From Candidatus Marinacidobacterales bacterium (GTDB taxonomy: Bacteria; Acidobacteriota; Vicinamibacteria; Marinacidobacterales; SMYC01), in the NCBI GenBank assembly GCA_965237955.1, contig OZ250169.1, positions 4,512,001-4,576,000 on the forward strand: 64,000 nt of DNA. The letters run 5' to 3'. Positions 41,089 to 64,000 of the stretch are shown here, one piece after another. A program made the translations under genes and the position numbers. How positions within the stretch are numbered: the stretch's first letter is position 1; every line of letters starts with the position of its first letter. Under the pieces are notes generated by a model. That model saw only the letters and a program-made list of their open reading frames with translations, ran no database searches and was not told where the DNA came from.

Positions 41089-41130
41089 GGCCGGGGTCCC
41101 GTTTCTAACGGGACTCCGGCCGTATTTGTT
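41089..41130 (+). terminator. Intrinsic terminator after recA
   Basis: 15-bp stem GGCCGGGGTCCCGTT / AACGGGACTCCGGCC followed by GTATTTGTT. Confidence 0.6.
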
Positions 41131-41216
41131 GCGGGAATCGACTTTCCCCGCGCCGCCGGTAAGTTCGACTAGGCTCGTGCTCTGGCGGTCGGGCTATCCT
41201 GAGGGAGGAGACTTGG

Positions 41217-41435
41217 ATGGTGTTCAAGGTCTTGCTCCAGTGGGACAGCGAAGCCAACGCTTGGACGGCTACCGTTCCAGAGCTGAACGACATCTGCACC
41301 TTCGGCTCCGACGAGGAGGAGGCTCTAGCGATGGCCAAGGATATGATCATCGGCTACTTAGAGGCTTCCGCTAAGGTGGGCAGTGAGCCGACTACGCCGG
41401 TCTATCTTCCTCGCGTAGTTGAGCTAGCCATTTGA
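41217..41435 (+). CDS. hicB: HicB-family antitoxin (short form)
   Basis: W.ATVPEL...TFG...EEAL.MAKD.I.GYLE; strong RBS. Confidence 0.85.
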   Translation: MVFKVLLQWDSEANAWTATVPELNDICTFGSDEEEALAMAKDMIIGYLEASAKVGSEPTTPVYLPRVVELAI

Positions 41436-41494
41436 GGCGACTTCCTGCCGTCTCCGGCAAGCATGTCTTTCGCGCCCTCAACAGAAATGGCTAG

Positions 41495-41619
41495 TCCCCT
41501 GTATCAGAACAAACTAGATAAAGCAGAGCTTGCCGAAACCATTCTAAGTGCATGAATCTCATGAATCTTATGGGCTGGCGAAAAGCCTAACTTTGTATAG
41601 TAATCAAAGATCCAGGGGA
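41495..41619. mobile_element. 125-bp MITE
   Basis: TCCCCTGTATC ... GATCCAGGGGA terminal IRs, flanked by CTAG on both sides (41491-41494, 41620-41623); AT-rich, no ORF. Confidence 0.75.
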
Positions 41620-41688
41620 CTAGTTCGCACTGCCGCGGGCTCTCACAGGTTCTTGAAACACGCGACACGCGCTGGGCTAGTTGCCGTG

Positions 41689-43003
<1,315 letters not shown>

Positions 43004-43186
43004 GTGCCCTATACCAACAAGGACCTGCCCAAGAAGACGTTGGCGTCTGTTCTGAAACAAGCCGACCTGTCAGCAGACGAGCTGGCGGAGATGCCATAGA
43101 AGCCTGCTCGTCGAAGCTCTGCCGACGTACTTGTTTGCAGATCTTGACTTTCATCGCGCCGCCGCTAAAAATGGGGGGCTCTTTTT

Positions 43187-43262
43187 GCCGGGGTAGCTCA
43201 GTCGGTAGAGCGAAGGACTGAAAATCCTTGCGTCGGTGGTTCAATTCCACTCCCCGGCACCA
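43187..43262 (+). tRNA. tRNA-Phe (GAA)
   Basis: 76-nt cloverleaf GCCGGGG...CCCCGGC-A-CCA; anticodon arm AGGA-CTGAAAA-TCCT; TTCAA T-loop; TTGACT promoter box upstream. Confidence 0.97.
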
Positions 43263-43554
43263 TATTTATCAGTAGTTTATGGCTCTCGCGACAGCATAGT
43301 AGAGCCGAATTGGGGGACGCCTTTCTTTGGCTTGCGATGGATCCTCGACGCGCGCCTCTCTTGTCGGCCCTTCCGTTCGAGAAGCGTTGCAACAAACACT
43401 GCCGTTTGAGGAGACGGAAAACCGTGCAGCGACTGGCGAGGATTTGTGGCCTCTCTCGGACGGGACCATTCGGAAGTGGAAGTTCACGCATCTTTTTGCC
43501 TTGAAGACGGGTTTTCGAAGTTCGAGTGCCAAGGCTCAGAAGGCTAGAGACTGT

Positions 43555-43860
43555 TCACCGCTCACGAGGTACACCGACATTAGCCCCAAAGTGCTGGTGA
43601 AGATTCTGCATCAGCACGACACCTTCCCGGCTGTTCGCGTCAAGATGAAGGATTCTCTCGACGAGTTTCGGGCACTGCGCTGAATAGGTCTTGTAGACAT
43701 CGTCTTGCTCTAAGAAACACTCCATAGCGTACAAGTAGGCTTGGCCTAGTTGAACGCGCAGAGCGTTTAGAGCGTAGCGGTTGTGAAGATTCTGATCGTA
43801 GTAGAACTGAAGCCCGTCCTCTAGCGTATCGATCGCTTCAGTCAATCGACCGCCTCTTGC
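43555..43860 (-). pseudogene. C-terminal fragment of a TPR-like helical protein
   Basis: LARGGRLTEAIDTLEDGL..LGQAYL; 5' part replaced by an IS5 remnant. Confidence 0.4.
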
Positions 43861-44275
43861 TAGGATACTCGGTCGGTGTACGAGCTGCTCGGTGAGGTCG
43901 GCACCGCGGACATCAAGTTCGTGATCCCACCTCGACGAGGGGCGGTGCCTTCGGACGGCGCCGAGGGCACGTGGGCGCAGCGGAACGCAACCCTCGAGAC
44001 GATTCGCAATGTCGGACGCCAAGGCTGGCAGCGGAAGTCACGGTATCGACGACAGGGCTCCGTCCAGAATCTTTTCTTCAGGTACAAGCGCACGCTCGGA
44101 AACAGCCTTCTCGCGCGCGGCTACGAATCGCAGAAGCGGGAGGCAAGGATCGGGTGCAATGTATTGAGCCGGATGGCTGAGCTGGGCAAGCCTGAATCCC
44201 AAGCGATCGTCGGGGAGTAAGTTGGGCCGCCAAAAGGTTCCGTGCGTGTCCCGCACTGATTCATGCACCAACGCC
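43861..44275 (+). mobile_element. IS5/IS903-group 3' remnant (different element from copies 1-3)
   Basis: VIPPRRGA..RN..W...SRY..Q..V...F.RYK..G..L.AR....Q..EARIGCNVL; right end GATTCATGCACCAACGCC. Confidence 0.85.
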
Positions 44276-44347
44276 CAGCGGCCGGGCCGGGACATCCCCT
44301 CCTGGAGAGAGATACAATGGACAGGCTACCCGAGAAAGGTTTCCAGC

Positions 44348-45889
44348 ATGGCGCAAGTCTTCCAGATAGCCTCTCAGAGGTTGCCCCTGTTTGGGGTGGT
44401 CTTGGCGGCCTGGCTCGGAGTCTCTCTTTCGTGTGGATCCTCCGGCCCATGGCAAGACAACCAGAGTGACGACAGCCGGGTGGATGCTCGTACACCAGGT
44501 GGCGATGCGCAGGCCGCCCGCGAGCGCGACGAAGAAGACGGGAGCAAGCAGGTTGCGTCCTCGGAGGGGGGTGAGCTTCGTAGCCTGACCGGTGCTCGAA
44601 CCCGGGTCGTCTGGACCCAGGATGTCGCCGACGGGACGGACATCCTCAGCGCGGGGAATCAGCTGATCTTGATGGGCTTTGACACCCACGACGACCTCGG
44701 CGAGCGACCTATCCTCGCCACAACGGCTAACTATTCCAAACCCCTGATCACGCCTCTTGGCAACCGGGTTGTGTTCTCGGACCACCAGCAAGGGAGCGCG
44801 TTCATTGTGAACTGGGATGGATCCGGCCTGAGGCGGCTTGAGGAAGGGTTTGCTCTCGCAACCTGGATCGATCCGGATACGAGAATCGAGTGGGTCTACA
44901 TCGGCACGGACGAAGCGCCGACCAGAGCTCCCTCCTATCGAATCGTCACGCGGTACCAGATCGATCGATTAGACGTGAGAGAAGTCGTCTGGGACAAGAA
45001 ACCGGTGAACCACAATAGCTTCCAGCTGTCAGCGGACGGCCGCCTCGCCGGCGGCCTGTTTCCTTGGCCTAATGCGGGTGTGGCGGAGCTGCCCAATGGA
45101 TCGTGGCGGCCCCTGGGAAAGGGATGTTGGACGGCTCTGGCAGGTGGCTCGAGCTCATTGTTCTGGTACTTCGACGGGGCTCACCGGAACCTGACCATGG
45201 TGGATCTGGAACGTGACGAACGGTGGCGGGTCAACATCAACAGTGCGCCCGGCATCGAGGGTTACGAGATTTATCATCCACGGTGGACCAACCATCCCCG
45301 GTTCCTCACGATGACCGGTCCCTACACCGTGGGCAACGAGGCGAACAAGATCCGTGGGGGTGGTCAACAGGTCGAGATCTACGTTGGGCGATTTGCCGCT
45401 GATTTCACCTCCGTCGGGGACTGGGTCAGGGTGACGGCCAACCGGCGCGCCGATTTTTACCCAGATGCTTGGATTGATCCGACCGAGCAACTCCCGACCA
45501 GCATGGTGCGTGACGTCGGACCTGAGGCAGCGCCCCCGTCAGCGGCGCCGGCCGCCGAAGCGAGCGCCCCGCTGGTCGTTGAGGCCCGGGTGCTGGAGAG
45601 CGGTCCGATTCCCACCCCGAAGTCGATCCTCCCCTATCGGCGTGCGCTGCTCGTCATCGAATACGAAGTCGTCCGCGTTCTGTCCGGCGCCTACGAAGAA
45701 AAGAAGATCCTCGTTGCACACTGGGTCATTCGAGACGACGAAGTGCTGGCCACGGCGGCGCGAGAACGGGGCACGGTCCATCGAATGTCGCTCGGCGCCT
45801 ATGACGAGCACGAGGAGCTGGAAGGAGAGCGGCTCGTCATGGATAGCGACGAATTTGGCCTGCGCCTCTATTACGACATCGCCAGCTAG
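44348..45889 (+). CDS. Putative lipoprotein with beta-propeller-like region and a C-terminal domain shared with the AlgJ-like protein
   Basis: Lipobox-like SLS-C; first gene of the acetylation cluster. Confidence 0.7.
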   Translation: MAQVFQIASQRLPLFGVVLAAWLGVSLSCGSSGPWQDNQSDDSRVDARTPGGDAQAARERDEEDGSKQVASSEGGELRSLTGARTRVVWTQDVADGTDILSAGNQLILMGFDTHDDLGERPILATTANYSKPLITPLGNRVVFSDHQQGSAFIVNWDGSGLRRLEEGFALATWIDPDTRIEWVYIGTDEAPTRAPSYRIVTRYQIDRLDVREVVWDKKPVNHNSFQLSADGRLAGGLFPWPNAGVAELPNGSWRPLGKGCWTALAGGSSSLFWYFDGAHRNLTMVDLERDERWRVNINSAPGIEGYEIYHPRWTNHPRFLTMTGPYTVGNEANKIRGGGQQVEIYVGRFAADFTSVGDWVRVTANRRADFYPDAWIDPTEQLPTSMVRDVGPEAAPPSAAPAAEASAPLVVEARVLESGPIPTPKSILPYRRALLVIEYEVVRVLSGAYEEKKILVAHWVIRDDEVLATAARERGTVHRMSLGAYDEHEELEGERLVMDSDEFGLRLYYDIAS

Positions 45890-45996
45890 TGCCGTTCCAA
45901 CTTGTTTCGCTAGCAAACCCGTTGCCCAGGTGCCGGCACGAGCGACCTGCCGTGGCGCCGACATTTGGGCGTAGATAGTTGGAAAGGCACTAAAGA

Positions 45997-47454
45997 GTGG
46001 TTTTCAGCTCGTACCTCTTCCTCTTCTACTATCTCCCGGTTGTCCTGCTCCTCTACTACGCTTCACCGCGTCGAGGTAAACACCTTCTCCTCACCCTGGT
46101 GAGCTATCTGTTCTACGGGTGGGCGAACCCGCTTTTTGTCTTCCTCCTTTTGGGATCGACGACGGTGGATTACTTCTGTGGACTCGTGATTACCGAGCAC
46201 GGCGTGCGCAACTGGGGAAATCCGATCCGAAAGCTCCAGCCCGGGACACCGCGCACCCGCTCCCAGCGTGTCGCCGTGACCTTGTCCATCGTCTCCAATT
46301 TGTCACTGCTGGGCTTTTTCAAGTACTTCAATTTCGCCGCGGATAACTTCGATGCGATCCTGACCTGGCTCGGCCTGCCGGAGCTCCAGATTCAGAGGGT
46401 GATCACCGTGGTGTTGCCCCTCGGAATCAGCTTCTACACCTTCCAGTCGATGAGCTACACCATCGACGTCTATCGTGGTCACGCTCGCGCGCTTCGGAAT
46501 TTCATCGACTTCGCCTGCTACGTGTCGATGTTTCCTCAGCTCGTGGCTGGGCCGATAATCCGGTTCTCGGAGGTCGCCGACCAACTTGCCGAGCGGACGC
46601 ACACCGTCACGAAGTTCGCGCGTGGCGTCGCCTTCGTTAGTGTCGGGCTAGCGAAGAAGATCCTCCTCGCCAATCCCTGTGGCAAGGTGGCGGATGTGGC
46701 GTTCGAGGCGGGATCCATCGGTCTCGTGGATGCCTGGTACGGCGTGATCGGCTACGCCTTCCAGATCTACTTCGACTTCAGCGCGTACTCGGACATGGCA
46801 ATCGGGCTGGGCCTCATGCTGGGATTCGTCTTCTCCAAGAACTTCGATTCTCCCTACCTCGCCCAGTCGATCACCGAGTTCTGGCGGCGGTGGCACATCT
46901 CCCTGTCAACCTGGCTCCGAGACTATCTCTACATTCCGCTCGGCGGAAGTCGCCGAGGACCGGCAAGGACCTACCTGAACCTGGGCGTCGTCATGCTCCT
47001 CGGAGGCCTGTGGCACGGCGCGGCCTGGAACTTCGTTATCTGGGGAGGCTTGCATGGCCTCTTACTCGCCGCGGAGCGCCTCCGCGGAAAGACCTCCCCG
47101 TATCAGTGGCTACCCAAAGCTGGCCGCCGGGCCGTGACGTTCGTCCTTGTGCTCATCACCTGGGTGTTCTTTCGGGCCGACGATCTGCCAGCGGCGCTCC
47201 TCTATCTTCGAAGCATGTTCGGGCTCGAGGCTGCATACGAAAGCGCCGGGCTTCTGAGCGGGATTTTGTATCAGCCGTATTATCTCGGCACCGTCCTGGT
47301 TGCGGCTCTGGTGACCTGGACTTGCCCACAGACCTGGGATTGGACACGCACGATCACGCCACTGAAGGCGGGTGCGCTCGTCCTGCTCTGGCTGGTCTCA
47401 CTCGCCGTGCTGGCAACGCAGACCTACAACCCGTTCATCTACTTCATTTTTTGA
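45997..47454 (+). CDS. algI: MBOAT O-acyltransferase, AlgI/PatA type
   Basis: MVFSSYLFLF, FKY.NF, LPLGISFYTFQSMSY.IDVY, FPQLVAGPI, QIYFDFS.YSDMA, FWRRWHISLS.W.RDY.YIPLGG, GLWHGA. Confidence 0.93.
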   Translation: MVFSSYLFLFYYLPVVLLLYYASPRRGKHLLLTLVSYLFYGWANPLFVFLLLGSTTVDYFCGLVITEHGVRNWGNPIRKLQPGTPRTRSQRVAVTLSIVSNLSLLGFFKYFNFAADNFDAILTWLGLPELQIQRVITVVLPLGISFYTFQSMSYTIDVYRGHARALRNFIDFACYVSMFPQLVAGPIIRFSEVADQLAERTHTVTKFARGVAFVSVGLAKKILLANPCGKVADVAFEAGSIGLVDAWYGVIGYAFQIYFDFSAYSDMAIGLGLMLGFVFSKNFDSPYLAQSITEFWRRWHISLSTWLRDYLYIPLGGSRRGPARTYLNLGVVMLLGGLWHGAAWNFVIWGGLHGLLLAAERLRGKTSPYQWLPKAGRRAVTFVLVLITWVFFRADDLPAALLYLRSMFGLEAAYESAGLLSGILYQPYYLGTVLVAALVTWTCPQTWDWTRTITPLKAGALVLLWLVSLAVLATQTYNPFIYFIF

Positions 47455-47471
47455 AAGGACATTAGCTGCCG

Positions 47472-49175
47472 ATGCCGGAGACCTCGCTGCAAGACTTCCG
47501 AGAGGAGCTCGCCAGACGCGAAGTGGGCCGGACGACGGTTGGGCGACGGACCGCCTGGGTTCTCGTGGCGCAGTTTCTGCTCGTGGTCGGTGCGGTGCCG
47601 CTCAGCGAGATCCTTCGCGACCGTCGGAATCCCGAGGCGACAGACACCCTCCGCGAACGACTGTCACGCCTGGTGCGTACGTTCCTGCCGGCGGACACGG
47701 ACCATGCCGAGACCGCGTCACCGCTTGTCTCGCGGATCGTCTCGCGGAACCGAGCGCTCATCCGGGAGCTCGATCGGTTTGGGGACGCGGCGGAGGATGT
47801 ATCGCTGCTTGGACGGCAGCTGCGGCCGCCAACCCAATACGGGCTCGCGGGCCTCGGCGCGGGTAACGAACAGGCCTACATCGGGCGTACGGGGTGGCTG
47901 TTCTATCGCCAGGGGCTGGACTACCTCACAGGACCCGGCTTTCTCGAGCCCAGGCAGCTTGCGACCCGCCGTGCGACGAACGACCTCGGGGATAGCCTGC
48001 AACCGGATCCGCGCCCGGCGATCCTGCAGCTGAAAGCGCAGCTCGATGAGCGAGGGATCCAACTCGTCGTCATGCCGACACCCGTCAAGTCGACCATTCA
48101 TCCGGAACGCTTCAGCCGTCGCTTCGAGGGCCGGAAGGATCCGCTTCGGCCGGCTTCGTATGCGACCTTCATTCGTGAGCTCGAGCAGCGCGGCATGCTC
48201 GTTTTCGATCCTGCCCCGGACCTGCTCGAAGCGAAGCGTCGGAGGGGAACGTCTCAGCACTTGATGGCCGACACGCACTGGCGACCTGAGGCAATGGAGT
48301 TGGTGGCCGCTCGTCTTCGTGATTTTGTGACGCGGCATGTCGATCTGCCGCCGACGCCGCCAGCCGGCTACGTCACTACACCTGTGGAGGTCACGAATCC
48401 GGGCGACGTCGCCCGGATGTTGGATCTGCCGGAAGGGCAGTCTTGCTATCCAGCGGAGAACGTCCGGCTGCGACAGATCCGCAGCGCGGATCACGCGCTC
48501 TGGCAGCCGAGTCGATCTGCAGACGTCTTGCTGCTCGGTGACAGCTTCAGCAACATCTACTCGCTTGCCGAGATGGGATGGGGTGAGTCTGCTGGATTTG
48601 CCGAGCAGCTGAGTTTTCTCATGCAACGACCTATTGACCGGATCGTTCAGAACGCCGACGGGGCGTTTGCTACACGGGAGCTTCTGGGGCGCGAGCTGGC
48701 GCGCGGCAGGGATCGCCTCGCGGGCAAGCGCCTCGTGGTCTTCCAGTTTGCGGAGAGGGAGCTGGCCTTTGGAGACTGGAAGCTCGTGGATCTCACTCTG
48801 GGCGAGGCAGCGCCAGGCCGTTTCTTCGTTCCAGACGTCGGAGAGGAGGTCGTCGTAACCGGGACCATTCGAGAGATTGCCCCGATTCCGCGCCCGGGTA
48901 CGGTTCCTTACGCGGACCACATCACAGCGATGCACCTCGTGGAGCTTGCTAGCGAGCGGGCAGGCGTGAGCGGGGGCCAGGCCGTCGTGTACATCTGGGG
49001 AATGCGTGACCACGTTTTGAAGGAAGCCGCACAGTTTCGGGCGGGAGACACGATCGCGGTCCGCCTCCGGCCGTGGTTAGATGTGGCGGATCAGTACGAC
49101 AGTATCAGCCGCACCGAGCTTACGAACGACGACGTGCAGTTTGAAGAGCCGACGTGGGGCGAGGTGGTTAATTAG
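47472..49175 (+). CDS. AlgJ/AlgX-like SGNH O-acetyltransferase with extra C-terminal domain
   Basis: G..GWLFY, P.K..IHPE, DTHW, GDSFS. Confidence 0.85.
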   Translation: MPETSLQDFREELARREVGRTTVGRRTAWVLVAQFLLVVGAVPLSEILRDRRNPEATDTLRERLSRLVRTFLPADTDHAETASPLVSRIVSRNRALIRELDRFGDAAEDVSLLGRQLRPPTQYGLAGLGAGNEQAYIGRTGWLFYRQGLDYLTGPGFLEPRQLATRRATNDLGDSLQPDPRPAILQLKAQLDERGIQLVVMPTPVKSTIHPERFSRRFEGRKDPLRPASYATFIRELEQRGMLVFDPAPDLLEAKRRRGTSQHLMADTHWRPEAMELVAARLRDFVTRHVDLPPTPPAGYVTTPVEVTNPGDVARMLDLPEGQSCYPAENVRLRQIRSADHALWQPSRSADVLLLGDSFSNIYSLAEMGWGESAGFAEQLSFLMQRPIDRIVQNADGAFATRELLGRELARGRDRLAGKRLVVFQFAERELAFGDWKLVDLTLGEAAPGRFFVPDVGEEVVVTGTIREIAPIPRPGTVPYADHITAMHLVELASERAGVSGGQAVVYIWGMRDHVLKEAAQFRAGDTIAVRLRPWLDVADQYDSISRTELTNDDVQFEEPTWGEVVN

Positions 49176-50242
49176 TGTTACGAAGCAGCGCTGCGGCGGC
49201 CGGTATTGCCCTCCTGGTCTTTTCGTGTAGCCAGGGAGGCACGCAGCCACCCGACGCAAACGCGCTGTTCACCGAATGGGCGAGCTTGGCTCGGTCCGCT
49301 GAGCAGCAAGGGTCCATTGTGGTCGAGGGCAGTGAGGGGTGGTTGTTCTTCGCCCCCGAGCTGCGGCACGTCGGCGTGGGCGAGTTCTGGGGCGACGCCG
49401 CGGCTGCAGTGAGCAAGGCAAGACGCCCGGAATGGGGGGACCCGCTTCCGGCTGTGCTCGACTTTCACAAACAGCTCCTCGAGGCAGGCGTCGGGCTCGT
49501 GATCGTACCTGTACCGCCCAAGAGCATCATCTACCCGGATAAGCTTCCGTCCACCGTCGAGTTCGGCGCTGAGCCGCTGCCACGTCTCGACGTCCATCAT
49601 CAGACGTTCTATGAGCTGCTTCGCGAGAGTGGTGTGAAGGTCCTGGACCTTACGCCCGTTTTTCTGTCGAATCGAGTGCATCCCAATGGCCCTCTGTACT
49701 GCCAGCAGGACACACATTGGTCGGGCATCGCCACGGCCCTCGCGGCGGAGCAGATCGCCGCCGACGTCGACTCCAAGCCGTGGTTCGAGGCTGCGGCAAA
49801 AACAACCTTTCAGGACGGGTGGAAAACGGTGGAGATTGCCGGTGATCTGTGGCGAGCGCTAGCCGAGCCCTCGCTGGCCAAGGAGCGACTCTCATTGCGT
49901 TTCGTGGGAACCGGCACCGAAGGCGCTCTCACCCCGGTAGAGTCCGATCCATGGAGCCCGGTTGTGCTTCTGGGCGACAGCCACACGCTGATGTTCCATG
50001 CCGGCGGCGACATGCACGCGCAGGGGGCTGGCCTGGCCGATCAGCTCGCCTTGGAATTTGGATTTGCGATCGACCTGGTGGGAGTGCGCGGCTCTGGGGC
50101 GACAGCGGCGCGGATCAACCTGTTGCGGCGTGCTCAGCGAATGCCCGGGTACTGGGCCAACAAGCGGCTGGTCATTTGGTGCTTCGCGGCCCGCGAGTTC
50201 ACTGAGAGCGACGGGTGGCGGAAAGTCCCGATCGGGTCGTGA
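49175..50242 (+). CDS. AlgX/AlgJ-like SGNH O-acetyltransferase (lipoprotein)
   Basis: VFS-C lipobox; G.EGWLFF, PPKS.IYPD, DTHW, GDSH. Confidence 0.85.
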   Translation: MLRSSAAAAGIALLVFSCSQGGTQPPDANALFTEWASLARSAEQQGSIVVEGSEGWLFFAPELRHVGVGEFWGDAAAAVSKARRPEWGDPLPAVLDFHKQLLEAGVGLVIVPVPPKSIIYPDKLPSTVEFGAEPLPRLDVHHQTFYELLRESGVKVLDLTPVFLSNRVHPNGPLYCQQDTHWSGIATALAAEQIAADVDSKPWFEAAAKTTFQDGWKTVEIAGDLWRALAEPSLAKERLSLRFVGTGTEGALTPVESDPWSPVVLLGDSHTLMFHAGGDMHAQGAGLADQLALEFGFAIDLVGVRGSGATAARINLLRRAQRMPGYWANKRLVIWCFAAREFTESDGWRKVPIGS

Positions 50243-50319
50243 CACTCAGTCGAACCTCGCTCCTGTCATTCATCATTATTGATCCGGCCGGGCCGCACCG
50301 GCACACACACTTCAAGTCC

Positions 50320-50480
50320 GAGACAATGAATCCGAGCTTCGTGAGCTCCGCGTGGATACGCCACGCGGTGCGCCCCAGCCGTCCTGAAGCCATCACCCGG
50401 ATGAGCCGACGTATCTCGGCGTCGATACGAGGCCGGCCAGGATAGCGCCTCTTGGAGAGCCAGTTCCAGTATCGTTGGAA
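50320..50480 (-). mobile_element. Short remnant of an IS481-like integrase (same type as 14418-15652)
   Basis: PGRPRIDAEIRRLIRVMA...IHAELTKLG. Confidence 0.55.
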
Positions 50481-50757
50481 TCGATCCCGATTCCTTGTCC
50501 GCGTTGACGATGACCAAGCGGCTCGTTCACGGGGGGCTGTGCCTCATCAAAATCCGTCCACGTGTAAAATCAGAGACTTACGCGCGTTCTCGCATCGTCC
50601 AGAGAGCGGATCTCACGCTTGAGATCGCGGCGAGGGTGACACTCCGCCCGAATTTTCAGGGGCTCGTGCGCAAAAAAAGCCGACCATCTGTCCGCCGACT
50701 GAGTGATGCGCCCGATGACCCTCTATTTGGCTCTTCACGCGGGCGGATGGGCAAGTG

Positions 50758-50940
50758 ACTTTGCCCGGACTTTGCCCGTCTTGCTGGCGGGTTGTGGTCT
50801 GTTCTGGTTGTTGCTGTCTGCACGCCCTCTCGTAAGAGACGGGAAACAAACCAAAACCGACCAGAACCGACCAGCAGAGACCACATCCGCGGGGTCTGAA
50901 AATCCTTGCGTCGCCAGTTCAATTCTGGCCCCCGGCACCA
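50758..50940 (+). repeat. att-like module A: arm repeats, hairpin and tRNA-Phe 3' half (variant T-stem)
   Basis: 2x ACTTTGCCC, imperfect inverted repeat 50783-50875, 45-nt tRNA fragment 50896-50940. Confidence 0.85.
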
Positions 50941-51137
50941 CGCCAGATCAAATCATCTCAACACTTTCCAGGCGTCGGTGTTTTCGTTTGGACTCCAAAG
51001 TCCCGCTGACTTTGCCCCTCGAGCTTTCCGATAGAGATTCCTCTCACGGGTGGTGCGGGCAGCGGTGCAGGCGATGTGGGAAAACCGGGCGATTCAGGCT
51101 AATCACTGGTAGTGGCCTCTGCCGGTGCCTGCACCGA

Positions 51138-52649
51138 CTAATAAGGATTCGACGGCATCATGTCCCACGCCTCAAGTTTCGGAATCTTCACAGAACCGCC
51201 TTTTGAAAAAACAACTACATTGACACTGTCTTTCTTCGTGGGATATATACGACGTATCACAGCCTGGCGATTGTTTGCAAAAACTTCCACAACGGATTTA
51301 TCCACGAACACTCTCAGCCTCAGTGTCTCACCCCGCTTGAGTTCCAGCGGGCCTGCCTCGACGGACTTCGGACCCTCGCCAAGACTGGACTTGTTGGTAT
51401 CGACCTTGAGCTTCATATCGTTCGTATCGAAATAGACAAGCGTCTCTTCCTGGCCATCAGGCGAAGCACACACCTTGACTCCGAACTGCTGCGCACCTTT
51501 GGGCACCATCTCTATCGAAATCTCAATGCTGTTACCGCGGATATCGTTTAATGGCAACTCGGAATCGGCTTTGACAGTAAGATTCTTCATCTTTTTAGGA
51601 TTGTATCGCAGCATTTTGAGTTCTTCCGGCGGTGACATCCGAAGGGTGTCGTCTTTTGCCAGCCAAAGCACCCGCGGCAGACTCATGGTTCCCCGCCAAC
51701 CGCTTCCGATGTGTATTTTCTTGCTTCTGGTGTCGCGTATCCAGCCCCACATAATCCGGCGGCCCTTGTCGTCCAGCAAACTCTCGGGAGCGAAATACGC
51801 ATTGTCAACCCAGCTCATTTGCTCGTGGAATTCAGGATAGAACTGCTCGTTCTTCCATTGGCCTAGGTAATAACGAACGCCAAGCCTGTGACTGATACTC
51901 AGAAGCATGTGTTTATTGCCTAGCTTGAAAAAATCGGCGCAGGATACATCTTCGCTAATGCTCACATCGCCGACAGTGTGTGCAAATAAGTCACCAACAT
52001 ACTTCCACGGTCCTTCCAGGCTTTTGGACTTGACGATTGCGGGCCTTTTCCCGCCGAAGATAGCGTAGTAGGTATCCCCCTCAAGCCAGCCGTAAGGATC
52101 CCATGAACCGTACTTGCCATGATGAGGGTCGCCCTGGCCGGTTTCCGGAGTAATGGGGTTTGAATCTAGCTTCTTCCAGGTGTCCAGATTATCATCCAGC
52201 GCAACTGCCATAGCATTGCCTGCCATAGCATTGCCCTGTTGGACGAAGTCTCGGTTCAAATTCGTCTCGTGGTAGCACATGGTCGGCACGCCGTCTTTAT
52301 TGAGAAAACAGTTTCCGCTGAACATACCAGTCACCAGTCCCGTCGGGTGATGACGCCAGTGCATCAGGTCTATACTCGAAATATGTCCCCAGTTGTGACC
52401 CCGGTAGTCCTGGAAAATATAGAAAAGATGGTATCTGCCTTTCCAGAAGATTGCGCCGTTAGGATCAAAAGGCGAAGCTCGCCCCTCGAGTATGACGAAA
52501 TGATACCCTGGCCGATACGGATCAACGAGCAGCTTCTCCCTCAGAGCACGCACTTGCTCATTGAGACTCTCCTGCGCCGCCAACGGGCGAGAAGCGGCGG
52601 CGAAGCCCGCGGCACTGGATGCCAGGAACGCTCTTCGGTCGAGTTTCAT
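51138..52649 (-). CDS. Tat-exported GH32 glycoside hydrolase
   Basis: DRRAFL Tat signal; RPGYHF, FDPNG, YHLFY, WGH..S.D..HW, FSG, WDP, YAPES..D..GRRIMWGW, SLPR, FVDKSVVEVFAN. Confidence 0.9.
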   Translation of the reverse strand: MKLDRRAFLASSAAGFAAASRPLAAQESLNEQVRALREKLLVDPYRPGYHFVILEGRASPFDPNGAIFWKGRYHLFYIFQDYRGHNWGHISSIDLMHWRHHPTGLVTGMFSGNCFLNKDGVPTMCYHETNLNRDFVQQGNAMAGNAMAVALDDNLDTWKKLDSNPITPETGQGDPHHGKYGSWDPYGWLEGDTYYAIFGGKRPAIVKSKSLEGPWKYVGDLFAHTVGDVSISEDVSCADFFKLGNKHMLLSISHRLGVRYYLGQWKNEQFYPEFHEQMSWVDNAYFAPESLLDDKGRRIMWGWIRDTRSKKIHIGSGWRGTMSLPRVLWLAKDDTLRMSPPEELKMLRYNPKKMKNLTVKADSELPLNDIRGNSIEISIEMVPKGAQQFGVKVCASPDGQEETLVYFDTNDMKLKVDTNKSSLGEGPKSVEAGPLELKRGETLRLRVFVDKSVVEVFANNRQAVIRRIYPTKKDSVNVVVFSKGGSVKIPKLEAWDMMPSNPY

Positions 52650-53452
52650 GACTTCACCTCCAAAGACTTCACCATTCTAAACGCACGCTGCCCGGATGGG
52701 TACACGCCTACCCCGTCTCGGAGACGCAATCCGTGGCGCGCGAAAAACCGTTGCGCCCTCGAGTTCCCTTCGGCGACCACGAGCCACACTTCGCGCGCCG
52801 GTGTTTAGCTTAAGAAGAGCGAAACAACAAACCTTCCTAGAAAGTTTTTGGCACCTGTTAGCAAGTATGCGCTTCGCTTTTTCGCAAAAGAGCCGGGACT
52901 CAAGGGTTCTCTCGATATCATGGTGGGGACGAGCAGGCTTCCCCCGGAACAGAGTCAAGTCATACAAGCTGTTCTCATCCAGAATGGACTTCTACCGGAG
53001 CTAAACGAAAACCAACTCGTCACTACAGGAGATGGGAGTGCGTATTCCAGCCATCGTGAACGCCGAATCCAGAGCAAGCTGAACAGCGAATCCGGTGAAG
53101 CCGAACGCTCATCGAAGCGATGAAGTGTTGGGTGACCTCCTTTCCACTGATTGAAAACGTGAACCTATCTTACCTGCGTGTTGTGTAGCAAGGGGCGGCA
53201 GGTCGCTGCCTACGGGAGCGGGCGTAAGGAAAGACGCGAAGCGACCTTCCCGCTCCCGTAGGCAGCGACCTGCCGCGGCCGAACCCCGGGCGATGTGGGG
53301 CTGGTTTCGGGGGGTTGCTGGGGTATGGCCTGGCTCGAGAAGACGCTTCCTGAGGCATTCTCGCGCGTCGTTTTGGCGCCGCATCGTCTGGTACCCCGGG
53401 TTTGGCGGTTTCACCCGTTTTTATCGCATCGACGCTGTGGTCCCTCGCTCGC

Positions 53453-54211
53453 TCATGCATCGGCGTTGTCAAATGCCTTTGGCGCAGCCTTGGTCTTTCT
53501 CAGAGAAGCTCCTTTGAGAGTGATGCGGTGCGCGCTGTGGAGAATGCGATCGCAGATAGCGTCTGCCTGGTTTGGGTCGCCAATCGCTTCGTGCCACTGC
53601 TTGAGCGGAATCTGGGTCGCGATGAGTGTGGAGCCACGCTCGGCGCGGTCTTCGATGACCTCCATTAGATCCCGTCTCTCCGATTCTTTCAGCGGGTGAA
53701 GCAGCCAATCATCGATAGCCAGTAAGTCCAGCTTGGCGAGTTTCGTCAAAAGCCGGGCGTAGGAACCATCACCACGAGCGACCGCGAGCTCGTGGAGCAA
53801 GCGCGGTGCTCGCACGTAGCATCCGGTGAAGCCGCGACGACAGGCCCGCTCCACGAAGGCGCAAGCCAAGAACGATTTGCCAATCCCCGTCGGGCCGGTG
53901 ATGAGCAGGTTATGGCGCTCACCGACAAAGCGGCAGTTGCCCAGGCTCAAGATCTGTTCGCGGTTTAAGCCTCGAGGCGCTTGGAAGTTCACGTTCTCCA
54001 AACATGCCGGATAGCGGAGCTTTGCCGCTCGCAGTCGTCGAGAAAGCTTACGCTGTTCGCGGGCGGTCCACTCGGCATCGACCAGGAGTCCCACACGTTC
54101 CTCGAAGCTCAGCTCCTTGTATTCGCTCGAGCTCAACTGGGTTTCGAACGCGGACACCAAGCCGAACAACTTCATGGCGTTCATCTTTTCTATCGTTTCG
54201 GGTGTCAGCAT
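53453..54211 (-). CDS. istB: IS21 helper ATPase IstB
   Basis: [31 protein letters not shown]...ADAICDRI.H. Confidence 0.93.
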
Positions 54212-55439
54212 CGGGACTCTCCTCCTTCGTAGTGATCCGCGCCTCGGATGTTCTCGTGCTCCTCTCGCGGTTTCGCTTCGGCGTCCGATTCGAGCACCAC
54301 ACGATCCAGACCAGCCGAGAGAATGTTTTTCACCGTGCGATAGCTGTAAGAGCTCAAAGCTTCCGCTCGTGCGCAAGCGGCCTCGAGACGCTCACTGCCC
54401 CAGCGGCTGCCTAGTCGCATGACTCCCAGGCAAGAGCGAAATCCCTGCTCCGGGTGAGGCCGACTCTCTAGAATCCCCGCAACCAGCCTTCCCGTGGCGC
54501 GACCTGACTGCTCCGCCCAGTGGAGCAGCCGCGACGGCGTCCACTCCAGGTGCTCCCGATGCGAACGTGGCATATGCTCCGGGTTCGTGGAGTAGTGCCC
54601 CTTTCCTTTCTTGCGGGGATGCGACGCGACGCGCTTTCCCTTGAACAGGACCTCCACCACCGAGGCCGTCACCCGTGCCTCGACTTTCTCGTGAATGAGC
54701 TGATAGGGAACGCTGTACAAGTTGTTCTCCACCTCCACGTGGTAGTCGATGTTCACTCTGCACCGCTTCCACGTCGATAACTCGTAGCTCTCCTGCGGTA
54801 GCGGTTTCAGTACGGGCCGGTCTAGCCTTTCGTACAACTCCCGCCGACTCACACCGAGCTTCTGCATCGGACGCGCATTCAGGACCTCTAACTTCTCCCA
54901 GATGGCTTCGTTCAGTTCCGCCAGGCTGAAGAACGTGCGATGACGAAGCACCGCCAGGATCCAGCGCTGCGCCACCTGCACTGCCGACCCCACCCCGAAA
55001 AATCGACGAATGTCTTCTCGCCTGCTCGATGCCGTTGACGCATCGTCGGGTTCAGCTTCTTCTTCCACTGACCGTACAGCTCGCAATAACGGCTGTAGCC
55101 GTACGCTCCCGGCTTATTCTCCGCGTACTCCACCCACAGCTGCAGCAACGTCAGCTCTCGGTGACGCCTCAGCTCCTCGTGGATGTGGGCATAGTCCAGA
55201 CCCGGCCGTGCGCCAGACGAGCCCGGCGGCGGAAACAGCCCTGCCTCCAGCTCCCCTTCGCTCAGCTCCTCCGGGAGCGGCCAGCTCAGACCACCCTTCT
55301 TCGCCTTGGCCAGGTACTCACTCACCGTTCCAACCGCCACGCGAAGTGCCTTTGCGATCATGCGGTGAGTAAAACCCAGCTCGTACTTTAACCTTAGAAC
55401 CTCTCGTATTTTTCTCATCGATAACCTCTTAGCTGCCAT
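54205..55439 (-). pseudogene. istA: IstA transposase lacking its DDE core
   Basis: N-terminus [29 protein letters not shown] is joined out of frame (~54995) to [24 protein letters not shown]. Confidence 0.88.
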
Positions 55440-55899
55440 TTCCTAGATCGTCCTCCTTCCGGGTACGACCTAGAGTTGCCTTGAAACGTGCTATCGATGA
55501 GCGTTCGCGATGCCGGAACCGGCGTTCACGTTGCCTGGAATCCGTGTTCACCTTCCCCGGAATCGATGTTCACGATCCCCGGAATCCGTGTTCACGATGC
55601 TTTGGAATGGATGTTCACCTTCGGCTGGAATCTGCGTTCACGATGCCCCGGAATACACAATGGGAGGACGTTTCTCAGGTACTACCGCCAGAAATACGCG
55701 GTTGACCCACATCTTCCCATATCTCCAGGTGTGGTTCACTCAGCCGCTGGTACGGCTACCGGAAGAAGTCGGGCCTCAGCCATAGCGACGACTAACCTCC
55801 CGCCTGGGGGCTCCGGGTCGAGGTTCGGATTCCAGGACAAGCGAAAGCAAGGACCAGCCGAATCACAAGACGAGTAGCACTTCGAGGGACAGCTTTAGG

Positions 55900-56064
55900 C
55901 CGTCGCCCCTCACTTTGCCCCGACTTTGCCCGTTTTGCTGGCGGGTTCTGGTCGATTCTGGTCGTTTCCACCTTCCAGGAGGCTCATAAGTGGATGGAAT
56001 CTAACCAGAATCCACCAGAAGCGACCAGCAGAGACCACATGCGCGAGCCCTGAAAATCCTTGCG
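55900..56064 (+). repeat. att-like module B with a truncated (15-nt) tRNA-Phe fragment
   Basis: 2x ACTTTGCCC, inverted repeat 55937-56029, then CTGAAAATCCTTGCG at 56050-56064. Confidence 0.85.
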
Positions 56065-56399
56065 ATCTATTCGCGAATTCCCTGGTTTCGAGCCGTCGCT
56101 GTTGAGGCCGCCCCCAATGGCCAAGGCAGCCTGCGCCGCCATCGGGCATTCCGGCACGGTGCCACTCCCAAGCGTGTTACGACGCCCCGCTGCGTCGCTT
56201 CTCCTCAAGATCTCACGATCCCAACCGCGCGGCGGGGAGATACATGTTGACGACTGACGCATGACCATCGCGTGAATCACGTGTTCGCAAAGCTAGTGCA
56301 ATTCAATTAGAAAAATAAATTCGTTAATGCTATAAAGGACTCACAGACGAGGCTCGCAGACGAAAGGTCCCGGCGGCCAACTCTAAACGGAGGTGATCC

Positions 56400-59031
<2,632 letters not shown>

Positions 59032-59034
59032 CTA

Positions 59035-60232
59035 GTACCCGTCCTGAAGCCTGTAAGGGATTGAGAAAAAAGGAGAAATCGCAAATTTAGGGCTAGTCTT
59101 CTGAGGGGGTGTCGATTAGGACCGTGTCGTTGAAAACATCCGATTCTAAATGACTTAACTCCAAAGGAGACCAGCCCTAAATGCGAAAAACGATCAACCC
59201 ACAGCCAAATCTACGTGAGCCCTGGCTGGAGCTGGAGCACGCACGCGAACTCGAAACGATCTCGTCGCTGCTCGATGCCCATCCTAAGCTCAATGAGCTG
59301 GTACTGCAAGACCTGAAGTCGGTCACCCCATCGGCAGGGAGCGATGTTGGTCGTGGGGGAATGAGCGCGGAGCAGGTTCTCCGGGCGTTGTTGGTCAAGC
59401 AGCTGAATCAGTTCAGCTATCGAGAGCTGGCGTTTCACTTGGCAGACTCTCGAAGCTATCGGACGTTTTGCCAGCTCGGCATCATAGAGCCGACCCCGTC
59501 GAAGTCGACCCTAGCAGCAAACATCAAAGCCGTGAAGTTCGAAACGCTGGAGCAGATCAACCGAGAGCTGGTGAGCGTTGCCGAGGATGCTGGGACCGGC
59601 GCGAGACCCTCTACGGTCACAAGGTGTGTCTGACTGGTGGTTCGTCCTCGATGATTTTGGATTGCGTGATCTTGGATGGGAATCCGGCCGATTCAACTCT
59701 CGCGGAAACCATGATCGACCGTCTAGTCGAACTCTACGAGCGGGCCCCGCGCCAGGTCGCCTACGATGGCGCGTTTTCTTCAAAGGCAAACTTGGAAGCC
59801 ATCAAAGGCAAGGGAGTTGAAGATGTTGCCTTTACCAAGGCTCAAGGTTTCGCCGTGACCGATATGGTCAAGAGTTCCTGGGTCTATCAACGCCTGCGGC
59901 GATTTCGCTGCGGGATCGAAGGCGTCATTTCGTTCTTGAAACGAGTCTTTGGTCTCGACCGATGCACATGGCGCTCATTGCCTTCTTTTAAATCGTACGT
60001 ATGGGGTTCCATCATCACCTGCAATCTACTGGTGATGGCGAGACATCTATTAAGATAATAACTATTACTCTTCCGCTCCCATAGCCTTGGATTCCTGACG
60101 ATTCGCCTCTCGTTTCGTCCAAGATTTTCATTCGCTCTCAACCCTACGAAGTTCCCTACCGAAACCGTATAATACCCACATCTTCGGTAGGCCTGTCGCA
60201 CACCACAAGTTATGGTGTTTCTGGACAGGAAC
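59035..60232 (+). mobile_element. ISNCY-type (ISDol1-like) element with internally deleted transposase
   Basis: Imperfect IRs GTACCCGTCCTGAA / TTCTGGACAGGAAC, flanked by TAACTAACTA; N-terminus GMSAEQVLR..SYRELAFHLADS fused to C-terminus YGHKV.L..GNPADS..DG.F..FRCGIEGVISFLKR.FGL.RC. Confidence 0.8.
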
Positions 60233-60370
60233 TAACTAACTAACCAACGCGAATCCCGACGCGGGCGTCCTAGCGCAACCGCCCGCGTTCGGCTCGCGTC
60301 CCAGGGAACGCCCCAGGGCTTGGATTCTCAGGCGAAAACGCGAACCGAATAACGTCGGCAACCACGTAAT

Positions 60371-60565
60371 CCGTCGCCCCTCACTTTGCCCCGACTTTCC
60401 GTCTTGCTCGCGGGTTCTGGTCGATTCTGGTCGTTTCCACCTTCCAGGAGGCTGATCAGTGGATGGAATCTAACCAGAATCCACCAGAAGCGACCAGCAG
60501 AGACCACATGCGCGAGCCCCCTGAAAATCCTTGCGTCGGTGGTTCAATTCCACTCCCCGGCACCA
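60371..60565 (+). repeat. att-like module C with a perfect 45-nt tRNA-Phe 3' copy (outer attR)
   Basis: Nearly identical to module B; 60521-60565 equals 43218-43262. Confidence 0.9.
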
Positions 60566-60688
60566 CTGAGTGCCCGCTGAATCAACGACTGGTGATTTCG
60601 TCCAGTGTGAGAGGGCGTTCCGCGAAGCCGAACTCGCTGAACCGCTTCACGTGAGTTCCGCACGTGCCGCCATTGGCGCAGAGTCGGC

Positions 60689-62400: not shown

Positions 62401-62587
62401 GACGAATGGTAAGGTTGAAGCGCTCTGCCGCAGTGGAGTAGTCCAGGCGATAAGGCGCGGGTTTCCAATCTCGACGCTGCAAGCGCAGAATCGCGCTTGC
62501 TTTTCCTTGTTCGATCCGATTAGCATCAAAAGCTTGGGAAGTGGTGTGCCACAGTTGGAGTTGTGATCTTTTAGAAGAGAGTGCTGT

Positions 62588-64000
62588 ATGCCTATCGTCC
62601 TCGACGGTTCGTCATTGACGGTTGAAAAACTGGATCAAATCGCTAGACGAGGTGAACCAGTTGAGCTCCATCCCGACGCCCTTGCGCGAATCAAGGTGTG
62701 TCGAGCCATGCTAGAAAAAAAAATTGCTGCGCGAGAGACCATGTATGGTGTCAACACGGGCATCGGAGAGTTCTCTGAAGTCGTTCTCGATGACGAACAA
62801 GTACAGCAGTTCCAGAAATACCTGATTTACAACCATGCCGCGGGGATTGGTGAGCCCGCAGCGATCGATGCGGTTCGGGGCGCCATGGCGAGTCGCATCA
62901 ATGTTCTCGCCAAAGGGAACTCAGGGTGTCGGCCGGAGATCACCGAGACCCTCGTGACGCTACTCAACAAAGGCGTGACACCTGTCGTCTGCCAAAAAGG
63001 CTCGGTCGGTGCCAGTGGTGATTTGGCCCCCATGGCTCAAATCGCTTTGTTGATGATGGGTGAAGGCGAGGCCTTTTATGAGGACAAGCGCCTGCCGGCA
63101 AGAGAGGCTATGGAAAAGGCCGTGGTACCCATACCCGGACTCCAAGCTCGCGATGGTCTAGCGACAATCAATGGTTCCAATTTCATGACATCGATGAGCG
63201 CGCTACAACTCTACGACATTGACCGCTGGCTCAAGCAGGCAGAAATTGCCTGTGCGATGTCATTGGAAGCACTCTTTGCAAACCTGAAGCCCTACGACGT
63301 GCGCTTGCACGAAAAACGCGGCTTTGCCGGTGCCGTTCGCTCTGCAAAGAGCATCATGAAGTGTGTGGAGGGTGGCGATCTCGTGACGGGAAAAATCAAG
63401 ACCCGAGTGCAAGATGCCTACTCCATGAGGTCCTCCCCGCAAGTGATCGGTGCCGTTCACGATGCCGTCGCCTATGCAAAAAAGCAGGTCGAGATCGAAC
63501 TAAACGGTGTCGGAGACAATCCGATTTTTCTTCCCGAGGACCAACTGATACTGACGGGCGCGAATTTTCAAGGCACTCCGGTTTGCTTGCCGATGGACAT
63601 GGTGGGGGCCGCCGTCACGATGGTATCCGTCCTTTCGGAGCGTCGTTTGAACCGTCTCACCAATCCCGCATTGAGTCAGGGGCTTCCTGCCTTTTTGACC
63701 AAGGGTGCAGGTATGTTCTCCGGCTTGATGCTCAGTCAGTACACGGCGGATTCCCTCATCGTTGAACAGAGAATCCTGTCGGCCCCGGCAAGCACGATGT
63801 CCATTCCCGCCGCCGCCGATCAGGAAGACTTTGTTTCTATGGGAATGAATACGGCGATCAAGAACCTGCAAATCCTGGACAACGCCTATGGAGTGCTCGG
63901 CATCGAGCTCATGGCGGCGGCTCAGGCGTTGGATTTTCGGGACTTTCGGCCAGGTCGTGGAGTCTCCACTGCGCATAGCGTCGTACGCTTGCATGTGGAG
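62588..64000 (+). CDS. MIO-dependent aromatic amino acid ammonia-lyase (HutH/PAL family), runs off the window
   Basis: Not in the ORF track. YGVNTGIG, GSVGASGDLAP (MIO-forming ASG), QDAYSMR..PQV.G, DNP, GANFQG, SERR, QEDFVSMG. Confidence 0.92.
   Translation, partial: MPIVLDGSSLTVEKLDQIARRGEPVELHPDALARIKVCRAMLEKKIAARETMYGVNTGIGEFSEVVLDDEQVQQFQKYLIYNHAAGIGEPAAIDAVRGAMASRINVLAKGNSGCRPEITETLVTLLNKGVTPVVCQKGSVGASGDLAPMAQIALLMMGEGEAFYEDKRLPAREAMEKAVVPIPGLQARDGLATINGSNFMTSMSALQLYDIDRWLKQAEIACAMSLEALFANLKPYDVRLHEKRGFAGAVRSAKSIMKCVEGGDLVTGKIKTRVQDAYSMRSSPQVIGAVHDAVAYAKKQVEIELNGVGDNPIFLPEDQLILTGANFQGTPVCLPMDMVGAAVTMVSVLSERRLNRLTNPALSQGLPAFLTKGAGMFSGLMLSQYTADSLIVEQRILSAPASTMSIPAAADQEDFVSMGMNTAIKNLQILDNAYGVLGIELMAAAQALDFRDFRPGRGVSTAHSVVRLHVE

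Follow-up and report, generated by a model that had tools for sequence, protein, structure and literature searches.

Gene arrays bounded by repeats are known from several bacterial systems, and here they are compared with an array downstream of tRNA-Phe in Candidatus Marinacidobacterales bacterium (GenBank assembly GCA_965237955.1, contig OZ250169.1, positions 4,512,001 to 4,576,000; this whole stretch of 64,000 nucleotides is called the window, and its own numbering is used below). Integrons are arrays of attC cassettes that are accompanied by intI and attI. Cis-mobilizable elements (CIMEs) are decayed elements which keep their attachment (att) sites and are devoid of recombination and transfer genes; they are 1.2-13 kb long, form tandems of up to three and often carry carbohydrate genes (PMC7563491; PMC5704250). 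The report on Dehalococcoides describes tandem islands at ssrA, 15 of them without an integration module (PMC3146451), and the work on Prochlorococcus describes tycheposon-built islands that contain partial tRNAs and broken integrases (10.1101/2020.12.28.424599). The Islander collection comprises 2083 anticodon-centred islands and 125 tandems, with an integrase in every member (PMC4383910).

The array in the window consists of three segments, each closed by a similar module of ~140 bp and a partial 3' copy of tRNA-Phe. It is likely that this region is a tandem stack of decayed integrative islands of one tyrosine-integrase family, similar to CIMEs. On this best reading the array represents a known way of building genomic islands, and is neither an integron nor a demonstrated family of cassettes mobilised in trans. 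Elements whose left end carried a tyrosine integrase would cross over in the anticodon loop of tRNA-Phe; each insertion would use the 3' half brought by the element to restore the tRNA, and would push the older element outward, and the order of insertion would have been 3, 2, 1. Deletions would then remove the integrase and most of the interior, leaving the att arms and a few cargo genes, and many of these deletions, located beside IS copies in an IS-rich genome, may have been caused by the activity of insertion sequences (IS).

The tRNA-Phe target and the right attachment arms

The target gene, its partial copies and the modules preceding them are located as follows:

43187..43262, + strand: tRNA-Phe(GAA), the target gene (ARAGORN), sole copy in the genome
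50758..50895, + strand: module A, read as a right att arm, comprising a pair of 9-bp direct repeats, ~10-bp repeats in inverted arrays and the left core site
50896..50940, + strand: copy A, tRNA-Phe 3' half, a foreign allele, with a changed but paired T-stem; 38 of 45 positions identical to the local tRNA-Phe
55900..56049, + strand: module B, read as a right att arm, with both arm repeats and the core spacing intact
56050..56064, + strand: copy B, the 15-nt core only (7-nt loop and 8-bp right core site); the tRNA half is otherwise absent, as is any left arm for segment 3
60238..60382, + strand: 145-bp extension of arm C, 89% identical to relative G008 only (one of 54 relatives)
60383..60520, + strand: module C, read as a right att arm, whose second arm repeat has lost 2 bp and which has gained 2 bp next to the core
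60521..60565, + strand: copy C, tRNA-Phe 3' half and final tRNA-Phe piece of the array; 45 of 45 positions identical to the live gene

The genome is a single contig of 8.13 Mb, and tRNA-Phe is represented once among its 55 tRNA and tmRNA calls. An Rfam scan returned tRNA and two ALIL elements only. The intact gene is followed by displaced 3' fragments in the same orientation, and every copy begins at base 1 of the 7-nt anticodon loop. The original prediction, which placed tRNA-Phe 3' copies at 50896, 56050 and 60521, each starting at the anticodon loop and each preceded by the conserved module, is borne out: the copies measure 45, 15 and 45 nt. The 15-mer core occurs four times in the genome, every time at the tRNA-Phe locus. 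These observations also support the proposed crossover at the anticodon loop and the tandem build-up at tRNA-Phe.

At 45 of 45 positions, copy A matches the 3' half of the live tRNA-Phe in G009, G012 and G013 (three of the 17 relatives compared). Copy A is thus a foreign tRNA allele, imported by element 2, and not a decayed local copy. Reduction of the tRNA fragment to only 11-20 nt is observed at 4 of 11 junctions when relatives and the window are taken together, copy B included. Separately, no intact tRNA-Phe was found in the 96%-complete assembly of G008, where two diverged 3' halves are located with a right arm (contig C2) and a left arm (contig C3).

The conserved part of the module starts at 50758, 55912 and 60383, with identities of 78% between A and B, 75% between A and C and 96% between B and C (the last over 150 bp), and no further copy is present in the 8.13-Mb genome. 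A pair of 9-bp direct repeats stands at its left end; its other parts are ~10-bp repeats in two inverted arrays, and a short core block. In the tRNA, A and B, this block mirrors the 8 bp to the right of the loop at 5-6 of 9 bases; in C it does so at only 2 of 9, because the 2-bp insertion shifts the block. Direct repeats occur on both sides of the core, as pairs in the right arms, as pairs in the left arms of G017 and G008, and as one repeat at 51010-51019. Paired repeats flanking both sides of the tRNA fragment are the expected arm-type layout of a lambda-type integrase. Judged by this layout, the module is taken for the right-hand arm of an attachment site used by a tyrosine integrase, in which the paired 9-bp repeats are putative arm-type sites for the integrase and the inverted ~10-bp arrays putative binding sites for accessory proteins.

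The original prediction had itself considered that B and C might be an assembly duplication. On the one hand, a local duplication or mis-assembly of one attR end, in place of separate insertions, would agree with the 96% identity of B and C and with the assembly contamination of 6.2% (CheckM-type). On the other hand, four substitutions and two 2-bp indels separate B from C and their flanks are unrelated, so that they are no assembly duplicate; C has 145 bp more in common with G008 that are absent from B, arm A is only 75-78% alike to B and C, and the relatives carry arms in similar stacks. Such an origin of the B and C repeats is very improbable, and separate insertions at tRNA-Phe are preferred.

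A BLAST search detected the module in six of 150 relatives, all of them inside the order (5 of 18 genomes in the family and 1 of 8 in a sister family); outside the order, 96 further genomes of the class gave no match. The fetched regions of these six relatives contain ten right arms, one of them counted by eye, stacked two to three per genome. As had been anticipated for such a search, the module lies beside tRNA-Phe fragments with varying cargo: eight of the ten arms adjoin a fragment that starts at the loop, and the remaining two are without a core. Six of the ten are reduced to 17-67 bp or internally deleted. A search of genome contigs gave five arm-core loci, which belong to records of Ca. 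Marinacidobacterales metagenome-assembled genomes and are not counted as independent of the relatives. The pattern of paired repeats as such was matched in six of 400 genomes of the phylum against five control matches, and by script none of these was associated with the module, a tRNA or an integrase.

Two junctions elsewhere are of separate interest. In another family of the phylum, the attP-like junction L133 (G406:C1:520250-520513) contains the same repeat word in pairs on either side of a tRNA-Leu-like 3' fragment, the fragment being recognized by eye. In G025, a module with a 19-nt tRNA-Phe core (L023:9612-9767) is situated 766 kb away from tRNA-Phe, ~6 kb downstream of a tRNA-Thr gene, beyond a tRNA 3' repeat and beside an AbiE-type pair.

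The left attachment arm and the parent integrase

Segment 2 begins with the opposite end of the element:

50941..51019, + strand: the family's left att arm, truncated behind the first of its two arm repeats; 86% identical to G008 and 73-75% to G009, G013 and G017

This arm is present in four of 54 relatives (five of 55 genomes of the order when the window is included); three more matches were weak (E 0.006-0.009) and were dropped as chance. In G017 the left arm follows the live tRNA-Phe and runs into an open reading frame (ORF) of 97 codons with integrase catalytic motifs (PF00589), which is cut by a fragment of an ISAzo13-type transposase and is 91% identical to residues 232-323 of integrase P0126. 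In G008 the left arm leads into the final ~34 codons of an integrase, and in both genomes the integrase stop codon is located inside the second arm repeat. The codons that survive on the same left arm thus number 92, 34 and 0 across genomes, an erosion series that points to a parent element that encoded the integrase and lost it by deletion.

The enzyme linked to the arms in this way is of the lambda type: P0126 scores 39.5 bits against the NF040815 cut-off of 220, and is far under the cut-offs for XerC, XerD and integron-type enzymes. Near-complete cognate integrases, P0126 and P0129, are present in other assemblies. The longest members of the cognate cluster have 315 and 323 amino acids (aa), and close relatives have 350-400 aa, with 40-60 more residues at the N-terminus. 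A full-length relative (56%) is located directly behind tRNA-Phe in G033, in the same position and with a different pair of arm repeats, and in G058 and G015 tRNA-Phe sequences are followed by what is left of related integrases; tRNA-Phe is therefore a common target for several related integrases. Of 19 loci examined, 4 had an integrase signal within 8 kb. In relatives, tRNA-Phe is also followed by at least four paired-repeat words of other kinds (L030, L032, L033, L040, L042, L099, L016), so that several integrase families use this site, and positions 43263-43320 of the window resemble one of these words, by eye only.

That no intact integrase would be found in the segments had been predicted, and none of the 18 matches to PF00589 in the genome falls inside the window. 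A tblastn search of the window with 134 proteins gave nothing credible, its top match (E 0.004) being a read-through into the tRNA itself; no serine recombinase was matched among 40 window ORFs searched with Pfam, and the segments hold no recombination or transfer genes except IS transposases. The nearest integrase in the genome is 39.7% identical to P0126 over 224 aa and starts in the middle of the protein, with the N-terminus missing; because of this the stack is probably inert now. For the same reason the best of the 18 PF00589 matches was rejected as a helper integrase encoded in this genome.

Wider collections were also searched for a complete element. None was found among viral contigs or genome contigs, phages gave 30% as the best match, and metagenome contigs yielded a single locus, L046, which is 100% identical to L028 over arm and remnant and is not counted separately from it. 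A search of the PDB with a full-length relative of the integrase returned no match. Among the 23 sequencing runs listed, five rows from two studies contain 0.7 or more of the words, and no RNA run is among the matches listed. Sites for integration host factor (IHF) were considered and not supported, with 18 matches to the consensus against 18.4 expected in the window. Two IHF-like motifs, at 43267 and 60580, stand 5 bp beyond the CCA of the tRNA and 15 bp beyond that of copy C, and are treated as leads only; the one at 60580 may mark a further element end beyond C, the window count of such motifs being at chance level.

Segments, cargo and competing explanations

The ends, cargo genes and IS elements of the three segments are the following:

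43263..43330, + strand: left end of segment 1, matching neither the left arm of the family nor relatives
43860..44275, + strand: IS5-family remnant (3' part; NF033579), directly ahead of the O-acetylation genes
44222..50242, + strand: cargo of segment 1, a predicted polysaccharide O-acetylation cluster (Pfam)
44222-45889, + strand: unnamed ORF, segment 1
45997-47454, + strand: MBOAT gene, segment 1
47472-49175 and 49175-50242, + strand: two AlgX-type SGNH genes, segment 1
50286..50636 (ends approximate), - strand: remnant of a multicopy IS-like repeat with ~22-46 BLAST matches elsewhere in the genome
51138..52649, - strand: GH32 glycoside hydrolase, cargo of segment 2
53039..55659, - strand: IS21 (istAB), an internally deleted copy of an IS with more than 40 genome copies
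56445..57756, - strand: IS3-family element with an ALIL frameshift signal
57763..59031, + strand: SH3 and TonB_C protein, cargo of segment 3
59033..60231, + strand: ISNCY-family element, ~410 bp shorter than other copies, with its target duplication intact

The genome is rich in IS, with ~45-55 matches each for IS21 and IS3. When IS DNA is removed (the IS5 remnant, the multicopy IS-like remnant, IS21, IS3 and ISNCY), the segments are 6911, 2503 and 1990 bp long, in agreement with the ~2.5 and ~2 kb estimated earlier for segments 2 and 3, each of which has one intact gene. The cargo is as it had been described, and the Cys/His pairs of the Zn-ribbon in segment 3 are visible, with no Pfam match reported. 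The idea of uniform units did not hold, as only segment 2 has the family's left arm. Segment 2 possesses both arms, the left one with one repeat and the right one, B, intact, and would be the only CIME-like unit with both ends, able to move only if an incoming element brought the integrase. Segment 3 has a bare 15-nt core at its start and the damaged arm C at its end. Segment 1 is likely a fusion of the left end of a different element and the right arm of this family, because its start is unlike the family's left arm and its end is arm A.

The original prediction compared the array with an integron, in which the module would be an attC-like single-strand hairpin and single genes would be captured as cassettes. 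Three features are in line with this: every module folds better than its shuffles into a long imperfect hairpin (z -2.5 to -4.4), segments 2 and 3 have one intact gene each, and the end of the TonB gene coincides with the border of the arm extension that G008 also has. However, two-sided change is seen in only 2 of 32 hairpin pairs and the covariation term is unfavourable (+2.72) among seven sequences, as would suit sites bound in double-strand form and would not suit an attC-like hairpin. The crossover, moreover, lies outside the hairpin, in the tRNA loop ~20 bp past the stem; the cargo genes lie in both orientations (four on the + strand in segment 1, GH32 on the - strand and the TonB gene on the + strand); no integrase stands beside the array, neither an integron integrase nor any PF00589 match in the window, and the linked enzyme is lambda-type. 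The end of the TonB gene falls within a run with stops in all frames, which is also the ISNCY target, and the stop codons at the edge of arm C were rejected as a cassette sign for this reason. An integron-like system is hardly credible as an explanation of this array.

Sharing of cargo between genera bears on the proposed mobilisation in trans. The GH32 region (51030-52856) is 96.4% identical to that of G009, where the gene is also situated between arms of this family, behind a sodium:solute symporter. The shared DNA stops short of the arms: identity between the left arms is 73.8%, and on the side of the right arm the sequences are unrelated. A third GH32 copy, 97.6% identical, is located on another contig in G013, between IS copies and without arms. 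At identities of 96-98%, the GH32 cargo has recently been exchanged between genera, with different arms or between IS copies. Of 54 relatives, 15 have homologues of the AlgX gene (44-75% aa identity); in G008 and G015 the cluster stands behind a 3' copy of tRNA-Phe, and in G013, G021 and G025 it is far from the tRNA. The full SH3/TonB_C architecture has no match in the 54 relatives, where the C-terminal part alone matches.

Several observations weigh against the tandem stack of decayed islands. The decay of the segments would be deduced from relatives, as no integrase remnant was detected in the three segments (HMM, hidden Markov model, of the cognate family in six frames; best E 1.1), and a complete element, having these arms together with an intact integrase, was not encountered in any of 54 relatives, although such an element elsewhere had been expected by the original prediction. 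Compared with close relatives, the longest cognate integrases are ~55 residues short at the N-terminus. Junction B has retained precisely the loop and the 8-bp right core site, which is the minimum that an attR would need. The left arms here and in G009 and G013 (73% alike) end at the same base after the first repeat and continue into unrelated DNA; an identical stop base is not predicted by random deletion. Finally, GH32 is 96.4% identical between the window and G009, between family arms in both, whereas recA of the same genomes is 78.7% identical.

Most of these points would agree with a family of non-autonomous mini-elements, whose arms are under selection and on which a rare helper integrase acts in trans, as had originally been proposed. 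It is supported further by the 13 right arms in seven genomes, none of which has an intact cognate integrase, by the occurrence of P0126 and P0129 in other assemblies, and by copy A being the tRNA allele of another genus. The breaking of left arms at one base in two lineages would then mean directed removal of the integrase gene, and the cassettes would shuttle sugar and cell-surface genes, together with tRNA-Phe 3' alleles, between genera of marine Acidobacteriota. This reading requires that a left arm with one repeat and a right arm of 140 bp suffice for an integrase of the P0126 clade to excise and re-insert the cassettes, which is rather doubtful. Integrase ends remain on the left arms of G017 and G008, 6 of 10 right arms of relatives are eroded, and at scattered positions, two of the three segments here have no left arm, the GH32 DNA shared with G009 ends before the arms and is found without them in G013, and no close integrase is present in this genome. 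Mobilisation in trans is therefore considered unlikely, and the accumulation and decay of integrase-bearing islands is retained, for which the eroded arms of relatives, the short cores at 4 of 11 junctions and the damage in arm C can be listed as signs of decay.

Some neighbouring features were noted in addition. The region upstream of GH32 with its twin-arginine-like leader (52577-52801) matches, at 96% identity, the 5' ends of an unrelated gene that is present twice (G000:C1:6012260-6012484 and 1227084-1227265), so that one of the genes is a leader-swap chimera. In the interval between recA and the tRNA (41200-43100), a small gene pair, presumably HicB/HicA, is interrupted by an IS3 copy (41689-43003), and a promoter-like 34-bp repeat occurs at 41129 and 43135. 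At the end of the window, a block of 1666 bp (62447-64000; G000:C1:4574447-4576112) is duplicated at 99.9% at G000:C1:6332990-6334655 and carries a gene of 507 aa, which we take to be ammonia-lyase-like.

Comparison with known systems

A narrow literature search found no paper on non-autonomous tandem tRNA islands or on 'Marinacidobacterales', which does not show that the array is unpublished. Like integrons, the locus presents one-gene segments in a row, with a similar repeat that can form a hairpin behind each of them. Unlike integrons, it has neither intI nor attI, its crossover is in a loop outside the hairpin, covariation is missing, orientation is mixed and the segments are riddled with IS. 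Arrays of this kind, without integrases, are missed by island finders that need an integrase and are often read as integron-like.

The closest counterpart is provided by the CIMEs of the streptococcal families of ICEs (integrative and conjugative elements) and IMEs (integrative and mobilizable elements), which share with this array units of 2-7 kb without integrases and with att ends, a tandem arrangement at a tRNA 3' end, carbohydrate and surface genes, and tyrosine-integrase ancestry. The differences are that the stack here stands without an intact ICE or IME, that only one of three units has both ends, and that the host belongs to the marine Acidobacteriota. The Dehalococcoides ssrA arrays are similar in that repeats of the target's 3' end bound the islands, each repeat has an element-side motif, and the left-end integrase points at the target; there the target is ssrA, with crossover in the T-loop by a serine recombinase, whereas here it is tRNA-Phe, with crossover in the anticodon loop and a tyrosine recombinase.

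With Islander class A and the Prochlorococcus islands, the array has in common a restored tRNA, a displaced 3' fragment and older elements pushed outward. No tycheposon replication or packaging genes were seen here, and the integrase-less array escapes Islander, whose tandems require an integrase per member.

The mechanism itself is already known, and the addition is the link to the parent integrase, as the arms are tied to the parent enzyme through broken integrase ends in relatives. The array records recent exchange of GH32 and of the tRNA-Phe 3' half between genera of a little-studied marine lineage. It is also a worked case of how a stack originates, and it defines an integrase, an att core and a set of arms that can be tested in vitro.

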